Below are positions 4,719 through 23,033 of a DNA stretch of 64,000 nt, piece after piece. How positions within the stretch are numbered: the stretch's first letter is position 1; each line of letters starts with the position of its first letter. A program made the position numbers and the translations under genes. This stretch comes from Pseudomonadales bacterium (lineage in GTDB: Bacteria; Pseudomonadota; Gammaproteobacteria; Pseudomonadales; Azotimanducaceae), in assembly GCA_051027215.1 (NCBI GenBank), contig JBPCXR010000086.1, positions 798 to 64,797 on the forward strand, read 5' to 3'. The notes under the pieces are model-generated. The model saw nothing but the letters and a program-made list of their open reading frames with translations. It made no database searches and was not told the origin of the DNA.

Positions 4719-6199
4719 CGCGCCGACTCCTGCGCGGTTAACGGCGGGTGCTGGGTGTGCCAGTCGCTACGCTGCTGATAGGCATGGCCCAGGGTAAGCA
4801 GGGTTTCTTCGCCATGATGGGGGCCAATGAGTTGTGCACCGATGGGCAAGCCATCGACGAAGCCGCAAGGAATGCTCATTGCCGGTAGGCCGGCAAGGCT
4901 TGCCGGAATGGTATAGATGTCTTGCTGGTACATGCTCACAGGGTCGGCCAGTGCTCCGAGCTTGAATGCTGCTGTGGGAGTCGTCGGGGCGAGGATTGCA
5001 TCAACTTGCGCAAAAGCCTGGAGGAAATCCTGTTGAATGAGCCGGCGTACCTTTTGCGCCTTTAGATAGTAGGCATCGAAATAGCCTACCGACAGTGCGT
5101 AGGTGCCGGTCAAAATGCGCCGCTTGACCTCATTCCCAAATCCCTCGCTGCGGGAGCGACAGTACAGGTCTTCGAGAGAGCTCGGGTTAGCGGCGCGGTG
5201 GCCAAAGCGAACACCGTCATAGCGGGACAAGTTGGTAGAAGCCTCCGCGCCGGCGATCACATAGTAGGCGGGCACGGCGGCCCGGGTGTTAGGCAGTGAG
5301 ATGTCTACTGTGGTGTGGCCCATGGCCTCAAGCTCTTTGCGCACATTGTCCAGATGCTCGGCACCAACCACTTGCCCGTCGTAGTACTCTTTGGGTAAGC
5401 CGATGGTCAGTGCTGTGGCAGGCTCCGCTAGCTGCGCTGCCTTTTCCAGCTTGAGCTGTTCTAGCCAAGGGTTTGCTGTTTCAAGACTGGTGGAGTCACG
5501 GTTATCGAAGCCGGACATATGCGCCAACACCAACGCGATGTCGTTGACGCATCGAGCCATGACCCCTCCCTGGTCCAGGTTGGGGGCGAAGGCGATCATG
5601 CCGTAGCGAGAAACGCGACCGTAGGTTGGCTTCAAGCCGCTAATACCGCAGTACGCGGCCGGCTGCCGAATCGAGCCGCCGGTGTCGGTGCCGGTGGCGA
5701 CCGCGCACAGGCCTGCGGCTACCGCAGCGGCTGATCCACCGGAAGAGCCGCCCGGTACATAACTAGTATCCCAAGGGTTGCCGACGGGACCAAAGAAGCT
5801 GTTCTCGTTGGATGAGCCCATTGCGAACTCATCGAGATTGGTTTTACCCAATGTCACGCAACCTGCTTCTTGCAGACGTTGGACCGCAGTGGCGTCGTAG
5901 GGCGCAACAAAGTTGGCCAACATGTGCGAACCGCAGGTGGTGAGAACACCTTGGGTGCAGAAAATGTCTTTATGGGCGATGGGTAAGCCCAATAGGGTTG
6001 TCGCAGCAGTACCTTTGGCCCGTTTTGCGTCTGCAGCGGCGGCCTGAGCTAAGGCTGGCTCTGGAGTCACGGTGATATAACAGTTCAACTCAGCGTGAGC
6101 GCTGATCCGATCCAAATAGGCCTGACACAGCTCGACACTGCTGAACTTTCCGGCATCGAGCCCAGCGCGGAGCTCAGTCAAAGAGGCAAAAGGGTTCAC
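4715..6199 (-). CDS. gatA: Asp/Glu-tRNA amidotransferase subunit A
   Basis: 494 aa with the amidase signature [14 protein letters not shown]. Confidence 0.95.
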
Positions 6200-6206
6200 G
6201 CTGCGG

Positions 6207-6491
6207 CTATTCCACTACCCTGGGCACCAGATATAGCCCTGATTGGGTTTCCGGAGCAACGGCCTGGAAGCTGCTGCGGTCGACGCTTTCTGTGACCTGG
6301 TCGGCACGCAAACGCTGGTGAGTTTCCAACGGGTGAGCCAGCGGCGCTACGCCGTCGGTGTCGATGGCTTGCATGGCATCGATCATTTGCACGATGTTGG
6401 CGAGGTCACGCTGCAGCTCGGCAGTTTGCGCTGGATCTAAGGCCAACTGTGACAAACGGCACAAATGTGCAGTATCGATGGGATCTGACAC
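6207..6491 (-). CDS. gatC: Asp/Glu-tRNA amidotransferase subunit C
   Basis: 94 aa, in the gatCAB operon position, with a GatC-like sequence ([26 protein letters not shown]). Confidence 0.9.
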
Positions 6492-6675
6492 TGGATTCAG
6501 GCTCCGGTCCGGGTCGTTTTGAGGCGGGGCAGTTTAACGCCGTGAGCGCGCTTGGGGTACAGATGTCGAAGTTACGGCACCGCGCCAGGTCCGACGTTGC
6601 TGGACAGTGACGCGGTTGCTAGAGTGCGCCCCGGCCCGCGACCTATACTCGCCGCATTATCTATCCTTTAATTGA

Positions 6676-7731
<1,056 letters not shown>

Positions 7732-14300: not shown

Positions 14301-15284
14301 CGCCTGGTGACCGAACCCGACCGAATACGTGAGCAGGTCAGCGTCAGCACAGTGGTGGAGTTAGCCGCGGATCCGCTACCCATCTCCCTGCAAGCCCAGC
14401 TACCAACCGCAACCGTCAATGTGGCGGCGTTGCAGTTCGGCGAGGAGGACTATGGTCGCTGGTCCTTCGCCATGGCGCCTGAAGCAGATGGTATACGCTT
14501 TACCGAGCTGTCCGCGCTAGTGAAGGGCATTGCGATAGAGGCCCCGGAAGTGTTCTGGCAGCAGCAACCGAACCGTACCCAGTTTGCTGGTGAGCTGAGC
14601 GCCGAAAACTTGGCTGAGGTACTGCCACGCTTGGGTTACGCAGCGACCATTGAAACGCAGTCATCGGGGATGCAGGCCGACCTCAGCTGGCCTGGCTCAC
14701 CGGTTAATTTCAACCTACTGAGCATGAACGGCAACGTCGACTTCAATGCCAAAAATGGCCGTTTCATCGAAGTTGAGAGCGGCAATAACGCGCTGCGCAT
14801 CTTCAGCTTGTTGAACTTCAGCGCCCTGGCAAAGCGTATGAACCTGGACTTTTCTGATGTACTAGGCCGCGGAATCAGCTTCGAATCTCTCGAGGCCGAT
14901 GTGGCGTTGCTCGATGGCGATTTGCGTTTTCGCCAACCGATGGAAGTAACGGGCACGGGTTCCCAGTTTCGCTTGAGCGGGACGGTGGATTTGGACACCG
15001 GTGCGCTGGCGAATGACATGATTGTCACATTGCCTTTGAGCAAAGGCCTGCCTTGGTATGCGGCCTATGTGGCCATTGCCAACCCGCTTGCCGGGCTTGG
15101 CGTCTTGGTTGGCGAGCGGGTGCTCGCTAAACCCCTAGAGCAATTGAGCAGCGCCCGTTATCGCATTACCGGTACCCTGGAAAACCCCAAGGCAAAGCTT
15201 GTTAAAGTATTCGAAAACAAAATGGAAGCGGAGCTGCCCGTCGATAAGCAGGCAGCTGCCAGCACAGAGGAACCTAGCGAATGA
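11355..15284 (+). CDS. yhdP: YhdP family (AsmA-like) envelope phospholipid-transport protein
   Basis: 1309 aa with an N-terminal TM anchor. It has the size and the position after rng seen in E. coli and Pseudomonas. Confidence 0.85.
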
Positions 15285-16729
15285 CCAATCCCATAGCTCA
15301 GGCACGCATTGCTCTGCTCGATCCGGCAGGCATTGGTGATGCCGACGCAGTTCGGGTGCTCAATCACCTCATGGGCCGTGCCGTGGACTTGGGAGAGCTG
15401 TTTTTCCAGCATCAACGCGCAGAGAGCTGGATGCTGGAAGATGGCATTGTCAAAGATGGTTCTTACAGTGTCGATCGAGGTGTGGGCGTTCGCGCAGTGG
15501 CCGGTGAAAAAACCGGGTTTGCCTACGCTGAGGACATTGTCTTGCCGGCGCTAACCAGCGCCGCAGATGCAGCGCGTAGCATTACCCGTCAAGGTGCCAG
15601 CGGTGCAGTTCAGGTCGGCGGCGGAGCAGTTACCGCTCCTGCGCGCTATCGCAGTGTTGATCCTTTGGCCTCGAAAAACGAAAAAGACAAGGTTGCATTG
15701 CTAGAGCTGGGCGACAAGGCTGCCCGTGATGCAGACGAGCGGGTTAAAGAGGTAACCGTACGCTTGTCGGCTAATCATGAATCTTTGCTGGTGGTGGCCA
15801 GTGACGGTACCTTGGCTGGTGACGTGCGGCCACTGGTGCGCTTCGATGTCTCCGTAATAGTCGAGCAAGGTGGCCGGCGCGAGCGAGGCAACGCCGGTTG
15901 CGGCGGTCGCGGCGAGATCGCGGATTTCATCACCGCTGCAAGCGTGCAGGAGCTGGCAGCGGAGGCGGTCCGCACCGCGCTTATCAACTTGGAGGCCATA
16001 GACGCCCCCGCGGGACCAATGCCCGTGGTGTTGGGCGCAGGCTGGCCAGGCGTGCTCTTGCACGAAGCTGTTGGCCATGGCTTGGAGGGTGATTTCAACC
16101 GCAAGGGTAGTTCGGCATTTGCCGGTCGCGTTGGCGAGCAGGTGGCCTCGACCCTGTGCACAGTGGTGGATGACGGCACCCTGGTCGACCGTCGAGGTTC
16201 GCTCAGCATCGATGACGAAGGTACACCAACGGGCGAGACCGTGTTGATCGAAAACGGAATACTTAAGGGTTACCTCCAGGATAAGCTGAACGCTCGATTA
16301 ATGGGCGTCGCGCCGACGGGGAACGGTCGTCGGCAATCCTATGCTCACGTGCCAATGCCACGTATGACCAATACCTTCATGCGAGCCGGTGAGCATGCGC
16401 CGGAGGAAATGGTGCGTAGCGTTAAAAAGGGCGTATACGCCGTCAACTTTGGCGGCGGCCAGGTAGACATTACTTCTGGCCGCTTCGTGTTCTCTGCCAC
16501 TGAGGCGTACTTGATTGAGAACGGTGAAGTGACGGCGCCGATTCGAGGCGCGACGCTAGTTGGCGACGGTCCGACGGTGATGCAGCAGGTCTCTATGGTT
16601 GGTAATGATCTAAAGCTAGATGCCGGCGTGGGGGTGTGTGGCAAAGACGGACAGTCCGTGCCCGTGGGTGTGGGCCAACCGACGCTTAAGGTGGACGAGA
16701 TAGTTGTCGGGGGCACCCAGGCCTCCTGA
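15281..16729 (+). CDS. tldD: metalloprotease TldD
   Basis: 482 aa with the [11 protein letters not shown] zinc motif. It overlaps the yhdP stop. Confidence 0.95.
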
Positions 16730-16908: not shown

Positions 16909-19134
16909 ATGCGCGCTTTTATTGGGATCATCATCGTGGTCATCGTTGCCGCGATCGCTTACAACTTCGTCTCTCGGCAATCGCCGGACGCGCCAGAAGC
17001 GCAGGGATCGACAGTCGGTGCACCGACGGCGTCTGCAGCTGAGCCTAGCATTGGCCTGATTGATGACGCGCGCATAGTCGACGCCGAATCCGAACCAGGC
17101 AACTGGCTCGCCTACGGCCGCACCTATGAGGAGCAGCGCTTCTCACCGCTCAATGCAATCAATCGCGACAACGTCGGCAATCTAGGGCTTGCGTGGTTTA
17201 GAGACATGGGCACTAATCGGGCGCAAGAGTCCACGCCCATTGTCGTTGACGGCATCATGTTCTTCACCAGCACCTGGAGTCGTGTGCACGCGGTAAAGGC
17301 CGCCACCGGTGAATCGGTTTGGGATTACGATCCGCAGGTCCCTCGAGAATGGGGTCGCCGAGCCTGTTGCGATGTCGTCAACAGAGGAGTCGCTGTCTAC
17401 AAGGGCCGGGTTTACTTCGGCAGCCTAGACGGGCGGCTGATCGCGCTCGATGCTGCCACGGGTGACAAGGTCTGGGAGGTAGACACCATCACCGACCGTG
17501 ACCGTTACTACACCATCACCGGTGCCCCAAGAGCGGCGAAAGGCAAGATCTTCATCGGCAATGGCGGCGCGGAGTTTGGCGTGCGCGGCTATGTTACTGC
17601 TTACGATGCTGCAAGCGGCGAGCAAGCCTGGCGCTTTTACACCGTCCCTGGTGATCCTTCGCTGCCCTTCGAGCATCCAGAAATGGAGGTTGCCGCAGAG
17701 ACCTGGAAAGGTGGCAATTGGTGGGAGGTTGGCGGCGGTGGCACCGTCTGGAATTCCATTGTCTACGATCCCGATTTCAATAACGTGTATTTGGGTGTGG
17801 GCAACGGCGCGCCCTGGACTCGCGCAATCCGCTCACCGGGCGGCGGCGACAATTTGTTCCTGTCTTCCATCGTCGCCCTCGATGCGGATACCGGGGCCAT
17901 GAAGTGGTACTACCAGACCACGCCTGGCGACAATTGGGACTACACCGCCGTGCAAGACATGGCCCTTGCCGATATGGAAGTAGACGGCGAGATGAAAAAG
18001 GTGCTGCTGCAGGCGCCGAAGAACGGCTTCTTTTACGTTATCGATCGCGCAGACGGCAAGCTGCTACGCGCTAACAAATATGCCACTGTGACGTGGGCCA
18101 CCCATGTTGATCTGACCACCGGCCGACCAGTCGAAAACCCCGAGCTAGATTACATAGAGAACGAAAAGTGGATTCTTCCGGGGCCGCTGGGTGCGCATAA
18201 CTGGCAAGCCATGTCGGTAGATGAGGAAGCTGGATTGGTCTACATACCGGCCCAGGACAACCCACTAATCTACGGCATGAACGAAGAGTGGAAACAGACG
18301 GGACTTTACAAGCGCAACCCAGGCCGCTGGAATACCGGTATCGAGTTTGGTCGAATCGCGCAACTGTTTGTCGACAATCTCGATGATCAACCCACACCCA
18401 AGGGCTACCTGAAAGCCTTTGATCCGTTGACGGGTAAAGATGTTTGGGTGGTGGAAATTCCGCACTATTGGAACGGCGGCGTGCTTGGCACCGCCGGTGG
18501 CCTGGTTTTCCAAGGCGACGCACTGGGTATGTTCTCTGCCTATGACAAGACCAACGGTGAGGCACTGTGGCAATTCAATACCTACACCAGCATGTTGGCA
18601 CCGCCGATAACGTTCGAGATCGACGGTACCCAGTACGTATCTATCTTGACCGGCAACGGCGGCGGTGATCTCTTTTCTGGTGAAGCCATGGATCCAGTGG
18701 CCACGCCCGCGTCAGAGACCTACGGCAATTACGGACGCCTGCTGGTTTTCAAACTCGGTGGCGTCGAGACCCTGCCAATTCCGAACCCGGTGGACAAGAC
18801 CATTCCCGAGCAACAGCTGGCGGAAGTCAGCGATGAAGAAGTCGCTGTAGGTGAGCGTACTTACAACACTTACTGTGCCGTCTGCCATGGCCTGGTCGTG
18901 CGCTCTGGTGGCGCCATCGCAGACCTTCGTCGCATGAACGAGGCTACTCACCAAATCTTTAACCAGATTGTTCTGGATGGCGCGTTTGCTGGGAAGGGCA
19001 TGGCAGGGTTTAACGATGTGCTTACCGCAGAAGACGCCCAGCGCGTGCATCACTATGTGCGTGCGCGGGCACATGAGGATAGGCAGTTCGCACTCGGTGT
19101 AACCGACGATCCGAAGCTGACCTGGCTGAACTGA
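16909..19134 (+). CDS. PQQ-dependent quinohemoprotein alcohol dehydrogenase (PQQ beta-propeller plus C-terminal cytochrome c domain)
   Basis: 741 aa. It has the vicinal Cys pair RRACCDVVNRG typical of PQQ-ADH, repeated W-containing propeller blades and the C-terminal heme motif CAVCHG. The N-terminus is hydrophobic (signal or anchor). Confidence 0.9.
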   Translation: MRAFIGIIIVVIVAAIAYNFVSRQSPDAPEAQGSTVGAPTASAAEPSIGLIDDARIVDAESEPGNWLAYGRTYEEQRFSPLNAINRDNVGNLGLAWFRDMGTNRAQESTPIVVDGIMFFTSTWSRVHAVKAATGESVWDYDPQVPREWGRRACCDVVNRGVAVYKGRVYFGSLDGRLIALDAATGDKVWEVDTITDRDRYYTITGAPRAAKGKIFIGNGGAEFGVRGYVTAYDAASGEQAWRFYTVPGDPSLPFEHPEMEVAAETWKGGNWWEVGGGGTVWNSIVYDPDFNNVYLGVGNGAPWTRAIRSPGGGDNLFLSSIVALDADTGAMKWYYQTTPGDNWDYTAVQDMALADMEVDGEMKKVLLQAPKNGFFYVIDRADGKLLRANKYATVTWATHVDLTTGRPVENPELDYIENEKWILPGPLGAHNWQAMSVDEEAGLVYIPAQDNPLIYGMNEEWKQTGLYKRNPGRWNTGIEFGRIAQLFVDNLDDQPTPKGYLKAFDPLTGKDVWVVEIPHYWNGGVLGTAGGLVFQGDALGMFSAYDKTNGEALWQFNTYTSMLAPPITFEIDGTQYVSILTGNGGGDLFSGEAMDPVATPASETYGNYGRLLVFKLGGVETLPIPNPVDKTIPEQQLAEVSDEEVAVGERTYNTYCAVCHGLVVRSGGAIADLRRMNEATHQIFNQIVLDGAFAGKGMAGFNDVLTAEDAQRVHHYVRARAHEDRQFALGVTDDPKLTWLN

Positions 19135-19168
19135 CCATCTGCAGCGCTTGCGTAGTTGCCGGTCAGTT
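19129..19168. terminator. possible bidirectional hairpin AACTGACC-N24-GGTCAGTT containing both convergent stop codons
   Basis: Inverted repeat read directly. The large loop and the lack of a U-tract make it weak. Confidence 0.25.
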
Positions 19169-19723
19169 AGATAAGGATTTTGGCGGCAACGCGGGCGGCG
19201 GCACGCGGACAAACTCGAAGTTCGGTCGTTCGCCGCCGTTGCCGGTGACCGCTTGCGTGCCCGCATCCTGCGTACCGGTTGCTGTTTCGCTTTGTTTGCC
19301 GACCAGGCTGCGACCCAGACTGCCGTTAAGCAACTCACCCTCTTCTATCTGCGCCAGAGCTGCTTGGGCTGCTTCCGCGGACGCTTCGTTCCATTGCACA
19401 CGATGAGCCCGGGGAGCACCTACGGGCAGGCCCGCTTCATCCAGTGATCGTACCCAGAAGTAGATAAAACCCGGCTCTTGTGTGGTTTTGTCTGGTTCGT
19501 CCATGGCGATCCACAGGACTCGAAAGTCAGCTGGCATGGCTGCCGGTGTGGCCCAACCCATGACGCCGTTGAGGCCAATCCAGCTAAAGCCATAGAGACC
19601 GGTCACAACTGCGATGGCTGCCGCTTTGACTGAGCGGGCGTAACGTGTCGCCAGGTTCAGCGACAGCAACAACGCGGCCACCGCTGCGTAGGCGATGGCA
19701 AGCAATATGATCGACGTGGTCAC
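19163..19723 (-). CDS. hypothetical 2-TM membrane protein with a Pro-rich tail (third gene of the stator-like cassette)
   Basis: 186 aa with two N-terminal hydrophobic helices, a soluble domain, a T/G/Q-rich stretch and VPPPALPPK. Its start overlaps the upstream stop (19720-19723). Confidence 0.7.
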   Translation of the reverse strand: MTTSIILLAIAYAAVAALLLSLNLATRYARSVKAAAIAVVTGLYGFSWIGLNGVMGWATPAAMPADFRVLWIAMDEPDKTTQEPGFIYFWVRSLDEAGLPVGAPRAHRVQWNEASAEAAQAALAQIEEGELLNGSLGRSLVGKQSETATGTQDAGTQAVTGNGGERPNFEFVRVPPPALPPKSLSN

Positions 19724-20337
19724 TTAGCGTCCTTTAACGCGCGTGTTAAAAGCGTCTTCGGCAGCTCGCTGGTACCAGCGACCTTGCCTTCTGCATCGAT
19801 CGTAAAGCGCACCGCAGTTTGCTCGTCCCCCGTACCAGTGAGCTCACGGGTTCCGTAGTAGACCAGTGCGACCGATGGATTGAGCTTCTCCACCTTAACG
19901 GTCACCGGTAGCGGTGCCGCGTAGTTAGACTGGTAGTGCAGCAGGTTTACCACGTACTCCCCCGGCTGCAAGGCGCGCACCGTCACGGTCTCTTGGTTGA
20001 TCGGGTTCGAAACCACCTTCCCATCGAGCTCGATGCGGTCGGCAAACAGGCCCCGATCGTCTCTGTCCAGGTGCATGAGGCTACTGTCGCGGTTGTGATA
20101 CCAGACCAGATTTCCCTGTGGGCCTTCAACCAGGGTATCGACGTCGTCCGGATGCCGATCTGCCCATTGCACGGTGATGAGCACTTCTGCTTTGGAGTCG
20201 ATTGCGCCGGTGTTTTCGGGGTCTCGAATCAGCGCGAAAGCGGCGATGAACATAAACGCAAAACCCAGCAGGACATTGAACAGCAAATCGGTGAACGCAT
20301 CCTGTGCCTCTGTTTGCTTGTAGATCCCGTGGCGCAT
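19720..20337 (-). CDS. bitopic MotB/ExbD/TolR-like partner protein with a non-canonical periplasmic domain
   Basis: 205 aa with a single TM entered by an Asp (AFTDLLFNVLLGFAFMFI). The periplasmic part of about 160 aa is beta-rich and I can see no OmpA-like motif. Confidence 0.65.
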   Translation of the reverse strand: MRHGIYKQTEAQDAFTDLLFNVLLGFAFMFIAAFALIRDPENTGAIDSKAEVLITVQWADRHPDDVDTLVEGPQGNLVWYHNRDSSLMHLDRDDRGLFADRIELDGKVVSNPINQETVTVRALQPGEYVVNLLHYQSNYAAPLPVTVKVEKLNPSVALVYYGTRELTGTGDEQTAVRFTIDAEGKVAGTSELPKTLLTRALKDAK

Positions 20338-20351
20338 CGCGTTGCAGCGGG

Positions 20352-21086
20352 TTAGCCGGCGGCCCGCTTGAGCGCAGCCTGCGATGCTGGTTGTAGCCGA
20401 GCATCGACCAGAACGGCAAGCCGAGTGACCAGCTGCGCTGCTGACGCATCGAGTATGTGGTACTGGAGCTTCAGCAGAGTACTGGTAATCAGGCCAGCTA
20501 GCGTCGTATACAGCGCTACTGCCATCCCACCGCTCATTGACGTCAACAGCTTTTGCATCGTGCTCGCATCGATCCCTTGCATTTCCGCGATTGGCAGGAG
20601 CATAAAGATGAAGCCGACGATGGTGCCGAGTAGGCCAAGGCGAAGTAATACGTCGCTCAGGAAATGCCCAAATGCATGACCGTTGGCAATCTCGTCACCC
20701 ACTGCTTCCACCAATACTTCAGCGTCTTTGGCATTGCCTTTATATGCCAAGCTTTCTCGAAATCGACGGATGCTGCCGGACGGAGCAGTAGCGTTGCTCT
20801 GCGCCTCTGTCTGCAGATCTGTCAGCGCCTGCCCGTCCTTAACAGCAGACTCCAATATCGCGAACTGCTGTTGCTCAGTGCTGAGCTTTTGCGCCAACCA
20901 AATCCAGTGACCGCTGGCGAGCAGATAAATTCCGAGTATGACGTAAGAGATATAGCTCTTGTCCGAGTCGAGTGCCAACTGCACAAGCCCACGCTCAATG
21001 GCGATGAAAAAGCCGAAGCCGATCAAGCCGGCGATAATGAATGCCCGTAGTACGAGGTTCGCGCCTGTTCTTTGCAACGTGGTCAT
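20352..21086 (-). CDS. MotA/TolQ/ExbB proton-channel family protein
   Basis: 244 aa with four hydrophobic segments and the family signature LGLLGTIVGF ... GGMAVALYTTLAGLITS. Its ATG overlaps the yjgA stop (ATGA at 21083-21086). Confidence 0.8.
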   Translation of the reverse strand: MTTLQRTGANLVLRAFIIAGLIGFGFFIAIERGLVQLALDSDKSYISYVILGIYLLASGHWIWLAQKLSTEQQQFAILESAVKDGQALTDLQTEAQSNATAPSGSIRRFRESLAYKGNAKDAEVLVEAVGDEIANGHAFGHFLSDVLLRLGLLGTIVGFIFMLLPIAEMQGIDASTMQKLLTSMSGGMAVALYTTLAGLITSTLLKLQYHILDASAAQLVTRLAVLVDARLQPASQAALKRAAG

Positions 21087-21622
21087 GATTCTGTGGTGGG
21101 TGGATCGGGCTCTGCTTGTCTGAGAAAACGAAACAAGGCTCGGGCGCTACGTTTTCGCTCACCGTCTGATCCCTGGTTTACCTGAGCTCGGCGAGCCTTC
21201 TCTAGCAACTGGCGTAGCTGTTGCCGGTCTACTTCAGGGTGGGCATTGATGTACTCCGTAAGCGCAGTACCGTCGTCAAGCAAGCGCTCGCGCCACTGCT
21301 CCACCTGATGTTGCAGGTACCGCGCTTTCGCGGTTTCACCGCTGAGCTCTTCCAAGAGCTCGGCGATTGGCTGCGGATCCAAATCGCGCATTAGCGCGCC
21401 GATGAACTGCAGTTGCCGGCGCTTGGCGCCACGGGCCTTGAGCCGTTGGTATTCTGTCAGGGCGGCCAGCAGCCGCTCCGGTAGCTGAAAGCCCTGGAGT
21501 TGCTCGATGCTCAGTTCTGTTAGCGCCTCCCCAAGCTTCTGACGCGCCGTGGCGTCGCGCTTAAGAGCGGTGCGTGACTGCGGCGCTGGGTTGTCGGGGT
21601 CCGCTAGGGCATTATCGTTCAT
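21083..21622 (-). CDS. yjgA: ribosome-associated protein YjgA (DarP, DUF615)
   Basis: 179 aa (LKRDATARQKLGEAL...RRQLQFIGALMRDLD). It is divergent from pmbA, as in E. coli and Pseudomonas. Confidence 0.85.
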   Translation of the reverse strand: MNDNALADPDNPAPQSRTALKRDATARQKLGEALTELSIEQLQGFQLPERLLAALTEYQRLKARGAKRRQLQFIGALMRDLDPQPIAELLEELSGETAKARYLQHQVEQWRERLLDDGTALTEYINAHPEVDRQQLRQLLEKARRAQVNQGSDGERKRSARALFRFLRQAEPDPPTTES

Positions 21623-21647: not shown

Positions 21648-23033
21648 ATGACAGATCAAATCGCCAAACCGACCCGCGTAGCCAGCGAAGCTCCAGCGCC
21701 GATCGACCTGCGCGCTCGGGAAGCGGAGATTCAGCAGCGGGTGGCGGACATATTGACCGAGGCCAAGCGTCAGGGCGCAAGCGCCGCGGAGGTGGTGGCG
21801 AGCGAAGATCTGGGTCTGGGCGTGACGGTGCGCATGGGCGAGTTGGAAAACGTCGAGTTCAATCAAGACCGGGGCTTTGGTATCACGGTATATCGGGGTC
21901 AACGCCGGGGCAGCGCTTCGACCTCCGATTCCCGGCCTGAGGCGATCGCAGATACAGTACGGGCAGCGTTGAATATCGCGCGCTATACCCAGGAGGATGA
22001 GTACGCGGGATTGGCTGATGCCGAGCTGATGCCCGAGCAGGTCGCCGATTTAGCGCTGTATCACCCCTGGCCGTTGGATGCTGATCAAGCGCGTGACCTG
22101 GCGTTGGCCTGTGAGAGTGCAGGTCTCGAACATGATGCTCGCATCGTAAACTCCGACGGTGCCTCGGTGAGTAGCGGGCAGATGTGCCGGGTTTACGGCA
22201 ACTCCCATGGTTTTGTTGGTGGTTATTTGGGTACTCGGCACAGCGTTAGCTGCATGTTGATTGCCCAGGACGACAACGGCATGCAGCGCGATTACTGGTA
22301 TTCCGTCGCTCGCGATGCCGAGTCGTTGGAAGAGCCGGCCAGCGTTGGTCGCACGGCGGGTGAGCGCACGGTGCAGCGCCTGTCACCAAGGTCGGTGAGC
22401 ACTGGAACCATGCCAGTGGTGTTTTCCCCACAGATGTCCATGGGGCTCATGGGTCATGTGATGGGTGCCCTGTCGGGTGGCGCCGTTTACAAGAAAGCGA
22501 GCTTTCTACATGACGCCTTGGGTCAACAGGCTCTGTCATCACACATAAAGATTCATGAGCAACCGCACCTGCTTGGGCAATTGGGGAGCGCCGCGTTCGA
22601 CGGCGAAGGCGTTGCCACCTGGGATAAGAATTTCGTCGCAGAAGGCGTGATCCGCAGCTGGATGATGTCCAGCTATTCAGCGCGGCGCTTAGGCCTTGCG
22701 ACAACGGGTAATGCCGGGGGCGCACACAACCTCACCCTGGCCGGTCGCACTTTGCCTAAGCAGGCGCTGCTCAAAGAAGCTGGCTCGGGGTTGTACGTGA
22801 CGGAGCTGATGGGGCAGGGGGTGAATGGAGTGACTGGTGATTACTCCCGCGGCGCATCGGGCTTTTGGTTCGAAGACGGAGAGCTGCAGTATCCTGTGGA
22901 CGGTGTGACCATCGCCGGTAACCTCAAATCCATGTTGCTGCGCATTGAAGCAATTGGCGACGATCTAGACATTCGCGGTAACTATCGTGCTCCCAGCGTC
23001 TGGATCGACGCGATGACGGTAGCTGGCGCTTGA
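21648..23033 (+). CDS. pmbA: metalloprotease PmbA (TldE)
   Basis: 461 aa and colinear with E. coli PmbA (ELENVEFNQDRGFGITVY ... GDYSRGASGFWFEDGELQYPV). Confidence 0.93.
   Translation: MTDQIAKPTRVASEAPAPIDLRAREAEIQQRVADILTEAKRQGASAAEVVASEDLGLGVTVRMGELENVEFNQDRGFGITVYRGQRRGSASTSDSRPEAIADTVRAALNIARYTQEDEYAGLADAELMPEQVADLALYHPWPLDADQARDLALACESAGLEHDARIVNSDGASVSSGQMCRVYGNSHGFVGGYLGTRHSVSCMLIAQDDNGMQRDYWYSVARDAESLEEPASVGRTAGERTVQRLSPRSVSTGTMPVVFSPQMSMGLMGHVMGALSGGAVYKKASFLHDALGQQALSSHIKIHEQPHLLGQLGSAAFDGEGVATWDKNFVAEGVIRSWMMSSYSARRLGLATTGNAGGAHNLTLAGRTLPKQALLKEAGSGLYVTELMGQGVNGVTGDYSRGASGFWFEDGELQYPVDGVTIAGNLKSMLLRIEAIGDDLDIRGNYRAPSVWIDAMTVAGA

Follow-up and report, generated by a model that had tools for sequence, protein, structure and literature searches.

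Within the 64,000-nucleotide window analyzed here, a stretch of contig JBPCXR010000086.1 from a Pseudomonadales bacterium of the Azotimanducaceae (assembly GCA_051027215.1), three adjacent minus-strand open reading frames (ORFs), denoted ORF-A, ORF-B and ORF-C, encode what their sequences indicate to be a new, unnamed family within the known MotA/ExbB/TolQ class of membrane machines. Because the trio recurs in hundreds of independent loci, its A-B-C arrangement is far beyond chance, and in the marine and soil relatives of the window it lies beside a gene for a pyrroloquinoline quinone (PQQ) dehydrogenase. The well-studied ion-driven motors of the 5:2 type are MotAB, ExbBD, TolQR, GldLM and ZorAB. 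Judging from sequence, A and B (with C) quite likely form an ion-driven complex of the MotA/ExbB type, and a functional tie of the trio to the PQQ enzyme in this clade is probable. The overall reading that we favor, with some reserve, is that the trio is an ion-driven motor of the 5:2 type from a new, as yet unnamed family, that its output lies in the periplasm and that in this clade it has been recruited to the PQQ enzyme.

ORF-A (20352-21086, minus strand, 244 aa) encodes a member of the MotA/TolQ/ExbB superfamily and the putative subunit of an ion-conducting pentamer. It matches the Pfam family MotA_ExbB (PF01618) over residues 150-223 with 35.4 bits (gathering score 22.9, E = 1.1e-8), a score that the phage and Azospirillum homologues described below likewise pass. 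Hydropathy places four hydrophobic segments at residues 12-30, 46-64, 146-164 and 187-205. Both results bear out the first-pass annotation, made from the letters of the window and a list of its ORFs, which had read a MotA/TolQ/ExbB signature and four hydrophobic segments in this gene. The cytoplasmic loop spans about 80 aa in the window protein and about 15 aa in the phage copies, as seen in the homologue alignment. Across 26 homologues, including those from phages and Azospirillum, D42, LGLLGT (150-155), A191, T195 and G198 are invariant and T194 is present in at least 90%, the last within a conserved ALYTTLAG motif; the family therefore keeps both motifs that hold the ion-pathway Thr residues, LGxxGT in transmembrane (TM) segment 3 and A-x-x-T-T-x-x-G in TM4.

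A search for a named subfamily returned none: the NCBIfam models for MotA/PomA, ExbB, TolQ and ZorA gave 11-17 bits against cutoffs of 100-700. With PADLOC and NCBIfam together only weak ZorA, TolQ and PomA matches were obtained, ZorA being the nearest (16.6 bits against a cutoff of at least 100). A profile of the A family searched against the PDB found MotA best (8gqy, 2.7e-6), followed by ZorA (8vvn, 6e-4) and by ExbB, TolQ and PomA (about 1e-3 to 2e-3). Because A falls below every NCBIfam subfamily cutoff and matches all solved relatives similarly weakly, its sequence marks it as a divergent, separate clade of the superfamily.

ORF-B (19720-20337, minus strand, 205 aa) encodes the partner of A, an Asp-bearing protein with a single TM helix and a beta-sandwich. 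An AlphaFold2 (AF2) model of high confidence (predicted local distance difference test score, pLDDT, of 91) places the helix at residues 10-36; a short linker leads from it to an all-beta sandwich (52-190), and a helix ends the chain. D17 lies in the cytoplasmic third of the single TM helix, with a second Asp at D13, and the acidic clusters DDVD (64-67), DRDD (91-94) and E116 are invariant. Seven residues, W58, D65, D67, D93, G96, E116 and G126, do not vary among 56 diverse B members, at least 90% of which also have D17; in the phage members D17 and 14 further key residues are invariant in 62 of 62. Searches of Pfam (E ≤ 1), NCBIfam, PADLOC and PDB sequences returned no relative of the window protein, and neither an ExbD/TolR domain (PF02472) nor an OmpA-like peptidoglycan-binding domain was detected by Pfam, PDB profile or Foldseek-PDB searches. 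One of the 56 diverse members has a weak Pfam ExbD match (5e-3). The description of B as a TM helix bearing an Asp, with a periplasmic part free of OmpA-like and ExbD/TolR domains, thus agrees with both the domain and the fold searches.

Foldseek of the B model against the PDB gave nothing at E ≤ 1e-3, and profile and sequence searches of the PDB gave sub-significant matches only, to the jelly-roll domain of Tk-SP subtilisin (E = 0.39) and to a 'virion structural protein' (11pb_C, E = 0.1). The pattern DDVDxW/Y..DP.GN resembles pre-peptidase C-terminal (PPC) and jelly-roll Ca2+-binding domains, below significance, and from these sequence features the sandwich probably binds Ca2+. In the viral structure library BFVD, the sandwich matches domains of large uncharacterized phage proteins, with a best E-value of 9e-6. 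These were found in a 713-aa protein of Cellulophaga phage phi4:1 (the 9e-6 match) and in Campylobacter phages CP21 and IBB35. A search of PHROGs gave only a weak match to PHROG 1735. In view of the BFVD, 11pb_C and PHROG 1735 matches, the B fold may be shared with phage envelope-binding proteins. We also considered B as a cupredoxin or redox partner and dropped the idea, as the Pfam Cupredoxin_1 match (0.13) is not significant and the family conserves neither His nor Cys nor Met. The B family is large, with 1623 clusters at 50% identity (E ≤ 1e-3) and 4469 proteins in a profile search at E ≤ 1e-10; among the matches listed, the source names are all 'hypothetical protein' and none carries a precomputed Pfam domain.

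ORF-C (19163-19723, minus strand, 186 aa, GTG start) encodes the third subunit, with two N-terminal helices. The first is strongly hydrophobic; the second (30-55) is weaker in hydropathy and rests on the AF2 model (pLDDT 73). Alignment and model agree on a small beta-beta-beta-alpha-beta domain (66-136), followed by a variable T/G/Q-rich linker (138-166) and a conserved tail, FEFVRVPPPALPPK, with invariant F, L, P and K within 171-182 and the consensus FEFxRVPPPxLPPK. Of the earlier picture of C as two TM helices, a soluble domain and a T/G/Q-rich stretch before a Pro-containing tail, all parts stand except that the second helix is the weaker, model-based one. We collected 113 C homologues. 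Pfam, NCBIfam, PADLOC and PHROGs gave no useful family match for C, PDB searches by sequence and by profile found no relative either, and Foldseek of its model against the PDB gave nothing at E ≤ 1e-3. TonB and TolA features were also sought: C has no invariant His and no TonB_C or TolA domain, only its two helices and the short PPPxLPPK tail. The first-pass annotation had supposed that B and C are not ordinary ExbD/TolR/MotB or TonB/TolA proteins, and Pfam, NCBIfam, PADLOC, PDB and Foldseek-PDB searches, all without a match, uphold this. With a hidden Markov model of the C family, the third gene is recovered in distant bacterial trios and in 53 of the 62 phage trios, most phage C proteins keeping an F-x-x-LPPxxLPxK tail. 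As third subunit, C is obligatory.

The conservation of the trio and its link to a dehydrogenase were read from 83 marine loci, of which three had been fetched earlier and 80 came from a scan of one genome per species with the B alignment; these 80 derive from SAR86, other Pseudomonadales metagenome-assembled genomes (MAGs), MAGs labelled Myxococcota, and Vicinamibacterales. A adjoins B in 80 of the 83 loci and C in 79, and the trio is likewise kept in viral loci, which settles in its favor the question of whether it is conserved beyond the window. Clustering of the neighbors revealed only four conserved families, namely A, B, C and the homologue of the gene at 16909-19134; the next family occurs in 16 loci. 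This fourth gene of the module, on the plus strand and convergent with ORF-C, encodes a protein with a PQQ propeller (PF01011) and a Cytochrome_CBB3 domain (PF13442). It scores 620 bits with TIGR03075 (cutoff 480) and aligns over residues 51-725 to alcohol dehydrogenase (ADH) IIB of P. putida HK5 (1KV9, E = 6e-219), matches that assign it to the type II quinohemoprotein alcohol dehydrogenases (PQQ and haem c). Its WDYT motif, at 343, contains D-Y-T, which we take to be a Ca-type signature.

The ADH gene adjoins the trio in 67 of the 77 informative loci; it is convergent just after C in 65, divergent and upstream of A in one, and co-directional and upstream in one, while in six further loci the contig is too short to tell. 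The cassette had been described at first as an orphan, a label that this adjacency removes. Identity within the marine set is 65-85% for B and 68-87% for the dehydrogenase. The remaining neighbors in the marine set are metabolic genes that vary by lineage (CoA-transferase, GST, enoyl-CoA hydratase, MFS and SDR, among others) and give no functional hint. The trio-linked ADHs all seem to be membrane-tethered, some by a hydrophobic anchor that looks uncleaved, others, from several lineages of SAR86 and elsewhere, by a lipobox (L-x-x-C). Both anchor types are followed by a P/A/E/T-rich linker of 25-30 aa before the propeller (window anchor region 16909-17060), and the 1KV9 alignment starts at residue 51 of the window ADH, which corresponds to residue 3 of the 1KV9 chain.

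The nearest sister group of the window B (P0235, 51% identity) comes from soil metagenomes. Across 80 loci of this group, the conserved order places genes for cytochrome c, a PQQ dehydrogenase of 596 aa, a secreted protein of unknown kind, a pentapeptide-repeat protein of the periplasm and an SNase-like protein ahead of A-B-C (examples are L089 463-7133, L095, L124, L130 and L131). Of the 11 sister loci whose upstream DNA is long enough, 10 have the co-directional PQQ dehydrogenase. A second soil subgroup (58-67% identity) has a PQQ dehydrogenase encoded divergently and directly upstream of A in five loci. The soil enzyme belongs to the methanol/ethanol family, has 596 aa and a separate cytochrome c, and carries a D-Y-D motif, presumably a lanthanide-type signature. 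A rough neighbor-joining tree of B places the marine and both soil PQQ-linked clades together, and on this tree the PQQ linkage probably arose once. As it has persisted across three gene orders and a switch in the type of dehydrogenase, the linkage appears to be under selection.

The trio is also widespread outside these bacteria. A tblastn search placed B in 29 phages of Rhizobium and Sinorhizobium, where its neighbors are a MotA_ExbB protein of 141-148 aa and a protein of about 150 aa with two helices. In Rhizobium phages RHph_N34 and RHph_N3_13 the trio corresponds to EVC06_145-147 and EVB79_063-065. A scan of IMG/VR found B on at least 114 viral contigs, some of them 200-527 kb long, with no protein above 50% identity to that of the window. 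The cultured Rhizobium and Sinorhizobium phages and the IMG/VR contigs together supply the loci L092 3554-5061, L093 3426-4915, L177, L178 and L179-L267. Of 89 viral loci, all carry B and C and 86 carry A, and the next neighbor family occurs in 26; genes near the viral trios include terminase, head protease and primase. In Azospirillum brasilense Sp7, chromid p1 (NZ_CP012915, about 986 kb) carries a trio (L094 5169-7112) with A at 5169-5996 (275 aa), B at 5983-6594 (203 aa) and a C-like protein at 6591-7112 (173 aa), near genes for PhyR, a BON-domain protein and Amidase_3, on a stretch left unannotated in the table of the plasmid collection. In two large bacterial genomes (L175 and L176, 6045-10851), the trio lies between YkuD (L,D-transpeptidase)-DUF302 and a protein of about 505 aa with VWA and FHA domains. 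Both have a cytochrome b561-like gene upstream, and L176 also has a propeller protein like soluble glucose dehydrogenase. Cell-wall genes (amidase, L,D-transpeptidase, lysozyme) recur near some trios, weakly hinting at an envelope ligand.

The analysis shows that A belongs to the superfamily, that B and C are novel, that the trio is conserved and that it is linked to PQQ dehydrogenases. In the reading that we favor, A, B and C would constitute a self-contained three-subunit machine of the inner membrane. By analogy with solved relatives, A would form a pentameric ion-conducting ring around a dimer of B TM helices; protons (or Na+) would pass by way of D17 of B and Thr155 and Thr194/195 of A, and their flow would turn A relative to B. 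Because the minimal phage A has almost no cytoplasmic domain, the output would lie in the membrane or periplasm. The membrane-proximal sandwich of B, with its probable Ca2+, may serve as an anchor or as the head of an axle, and the transducing arm may be C, a small membrane-anchored domain with a flexible linker whose conserved strand and PPPxLPxK tail would engage a partner. In the clade of the window the trio would have been recruited to the periplasmic PQQ dehydrogenase and would move with it as a four-gene module. The most likely client would be the dehydrogenase itself, through work driven by the proton-motive force (PMF), for example the supply of cofactor or holoenzyme, or its handling at the envelope; each specific output of this kind is, taken singly, rather unlikely. 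A bolder version, which we consider decidedly doubtful, would see in the trio a major unrecognized class of 5:2 motors spread chiefly by phages, with the Ca2+-binding sandwich as a periplasmic head that rotates or is anchored and with C as the arm. It would perform PMF-powered work required for making periplasmic PQQ dehydrogenases active, or for keeping them so, in marine bacteria (SAR86 and other Pseudomonadales) and soil bacteria, such as PQQ or metal delivery or loading, and would manipulate the host envelope in phages.

Several points weigh against the favored reading. The 5:2 stoichiometry and the rotation are carried over by analogy, and we likewise infer what B and C do and how the trio serves the dehydrogenase; in Foldseek-PDB searches the B sandwich and the C domain match no structure of known function. 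D17, the canonical TM Asp otherwise conserved as described above, is replaced by Val in both soil clades (FTDLLFN in the window, FTVMLFK in soil; loci L095, L124, L130, L147, L153, L158 and L164), so that the conservation of this residue stands for the diverse and phage members and fails there. Soil B proteins keep an Asp four residues upstream, at the position of D13, whereas the marine clade has both D13 and D17. The tie to the dehydrogenase is qualified as well. All of the PQQ linkage falls into one clade and may go back to a single event, and in 10 marine loci, including the 'Azophilus' group, the ADH is absent despite at least 2.5 kb of DNA (two of these have another PQQ propeller protein instead). 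The ADH gene is convergent with the trio, and hence not in the same operon. Close homologues such as P. putida ADH IIB are not known to need such a partner. Many trios, namely those of phages, Azospirillum, L086, L175 and L176, have no PQQ enzyme nearby, so the generic function of the trio cannot be PQQ-specific.

Other explanations were weighed against the same evidence. The trio could be a Ton- or Tol-like energizer, in which A corresponds to ExbB/TolQ, B to ExbD/TolR, and C is an analogue of TonB/TolA whose tail reaches peptidoglycan or an outer-membrane partner, such as a TonB-dependent transporter for PQQ, metals or nutrients; phages would then carry the trio to boost or hijack outer-membrane transport. 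The layout fits, as it does in ExbB-ExbD-TonB and TolQ-TolR-TolA: three adjacent genes, an A protein of the same Pfam family with the LGxxGT and AxxTTxxG motifs, a B protein with a single N-terminal TM helix and an Asp near its cytoplasmic end, and a membrane-anchored periplasmic third protein with a Pro-containing tail. The negligible cytoplasmic domain of A again implies a periplasmic output, the trio-bearing phage contigs have typical auxiliary genes, and PQQ and lanthanides are taken up through TonB-dependent transporters. The subunits themselves differ, however. A has four TM-like segments, like MotA and ZorA, and not the three of ExbB and TolQ; B has a beta-sandwich of about 150 aa with acidic clusters in place of the ExbD/TolR fold; and C, which has two helices, a small domain of another kind and a short conserved tail at its C-terminus but no conserved His, lacks the Pro-rich rod and C-domain of TonB and TolA. 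No ExbD/TolR domain in B and no TonB_C or TolA domain in C appeared with Pfam, PDB profiles or Foldseek, and we discarded a plain Ton or Tol system once these features had been looked for and found absent. Nor is there a TonB-dependent receptor among the conserved neighbors in the 83 marine, 80 soil and 89 viral loci, or a linked TolB or Pal gene. We consider this explanation unlikely.

The trio could instead be a module of phages or mobile elements, acting in superinfection exclusion, lysis timing, PMF sensing or dissipation, or defense or counter-defense, with bacterial copies that are domesticated or hitch-hiking and an ADH adjacency without meaning. Phage lineages, many and diverse, branch at the base of the rough B tree, the module occurs in varying genomic contexts, with one Vicinamibacterales copy (L003) beside IS110 and DDE transposases, and the nearest PADLOC/NCBIfam matches of A are to ZorA. 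Those matches are weak, however, and confined to the TM core; ZorB, ZorC and ZorD are missing, and PADLOC has no match for B or C. In addition, the PQQ linkage persists through the three gene orders and the change in dehydrogenase type, the marine B is about as conserved as the enzyme, and base composition is flat, which makes this explanation rather improbable. An operon of yjgA-A-B-C, with the motor functionally coupled to ribosome maturation, had been suggested by the overlap of yjgA and ORF-A and would be consistent with the lack of a promoter-like site between them. Comparative data contradict it: yjgA, pmbA and mgtE are near the trio in none of the 83 related loci, the trio at L001 is preceded by a 327-nt intergenic region, and yjgA-pmbA and tldD are housekeeping neighbors split by an inserted module. 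We regard such coupling as extremely unlikely, and the adjacency to yjgA as having no general meaning.

Comparison with the other members of the class brings out both likenesses and differences. Like MotAB and PomAB, the trio has a four-TM A subunit, MotA 8gqy is its best PDB profile match, and the TM Asp of B corresponds to MotB D32; overlapping A and B genes are listed among the likenesses, the two being 14 nt apart in the window. Unlike MotAB and PomAB, it has a cytoplasmic loop too small for a torque-generating interface, down to about 15 aa in the phages, and an obligatory third subunit; its B lacks both a plug and an OmpA-like peptidoglycan-binding domain, and flagellar genes are missing. 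With ZorAB the trio shares a non-flagellar four-TM A subunit, whose TM core scores best against the ZorA models of PADLOC and NCBIfam. That score is far below the cutoff, and the long ZorA tail, the ZorB peptidoglycan-binding domain and ZorC, ZorD and ZorE are all lacking; furthermore, Zorya is an anti-phage system, whereas the trio is carried by phages themselves. Zorya was rejected as an identification, there being only the weak match of the TM core, no PADLOC match for B or C and no Zor genes among the conserved neighbors. GldLM and PorLM resemble the trio as 5:2-type motors with a periplasmic output and a single-TM partner with beta-rich periplasmic domains. GldL, with two TM helices and a cytoplasmic domain, and GldM, which is long and has four domains, are both unlike the trio, and we found neither a sequence or fold match to GldLM or PorLM (Pfam, Foldseek-PDB) nor linked genes of the type IX secretion system.

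As a conserved neighbor of a periplasmic PQQ dehydrogenase, the trio resembles the accessory genes of the ped, exa and mxa clusters, and in the soil clade a cytochrome c and the periplasmic pentapeptide-repeat protein accompany it as well. We know of no MotA/ExbB-type motor described as an accessory of a PQQ dehydrogenase. In the literature that we searched, the trio is not described, and neither are phage MotA/ExbB cassettes or any motor with a link to PQQ dehydrogenases. In Methylomicrobium alcaliphilum 20ZR, the MotA/TolQ/ExbB genes MEALZ_3990 and MEALZ_3991 are down-regulated under lanthanum together with mxaFI, which encodes the Ca-dependent PQQ methanol dehydrogenase (PMC6277846). A 2025 survey of MotAB relatives reports many uncharacterized 'generic ion transporters' and does not mention PQQ (PMC12505986).

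Each known kind of 5:2 motor has revealed a new route by which energy of the inner membrane enters the envelope. The trio would add a motor family with thousands of members and two partner proteins of unknown fold class, present in abundant marine bacteria (SAR86), soil bacteria and many phages. It bears on the role of membrane motors encoded by phages and on whether periplasmic PQQ enzymes need energy-dependent servicing, and Azospirillum brasilense Sp7 and cultured Rhizobium phages are tractable carriers.

At the locus itself, the four-gene module (A, B, C and ADH) sits as an insertion between tldD and yjgA-pmbA. One flank consists of mreBCD, rng, yhdP and tldD, the other of yjgA, pmbA, mgtE and rapZ, an order that is ordinary gammaproteobacterial housekeeping synteny. 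The genes nearest the module are a tldD-like gene of the PmbA/TldD family (15281-16729) on one side and, on the other, yjgA/darP (21083-21622, minus strand, 179 aa), which lies outside the conserved module, and the PmbA/TldD-family paralogue pmbA (21648-23033). The yjgA product is a true DarP/YjgA protein (Pfam DarP, 7e-47; NCBIfam equivalog, 153 bits against a cutoff of 70). Its stop codon and the start of ORF-A have ATGA in common (…GAA TCA TGA / ATG ACC…), ORF-A and ORF-B are separated by 14 nt (CCCGCTGCAACGCG), GTGA is common to the ORF-B stop and the ORF-C start, and 28 nt separate ORF-C from the end of the convergent dehydrogenase gene. Coordinates re-derived from the window are identical to the four minus-strand ORFs, the ATGA overlap, the 14-nt gap and the GTGA overlap of the first-pass annotation. 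Given the insertion point of the module in this genome, the yjgA overlap is a local accident. A scan for sigma-70-like promoters and terminators from yjgA to ORF-C found nothing above shuffled background and is uninformative; as no such signal is present inside the block, co-transcription of yjgA with the trio is possible in this genome. GC content is flat across the cassette and its surroundings; this profile gives no indication of a recent transfer at the locus and is likewise uninformative for the cassette.

Two B copies (about 80% identity to the window B) were observed in each of two assemblies, one of 5.7 Mb (L002 and L003) and the Vicinamibacterales MAG OY759970.1 (L039 and L041). In each, one of the two copies has no C and is followed by a different PQQ propeller protein. 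The L003 copy adjoins IS110 and DDE transposases, a setting that suggests mobility or recent transfer.

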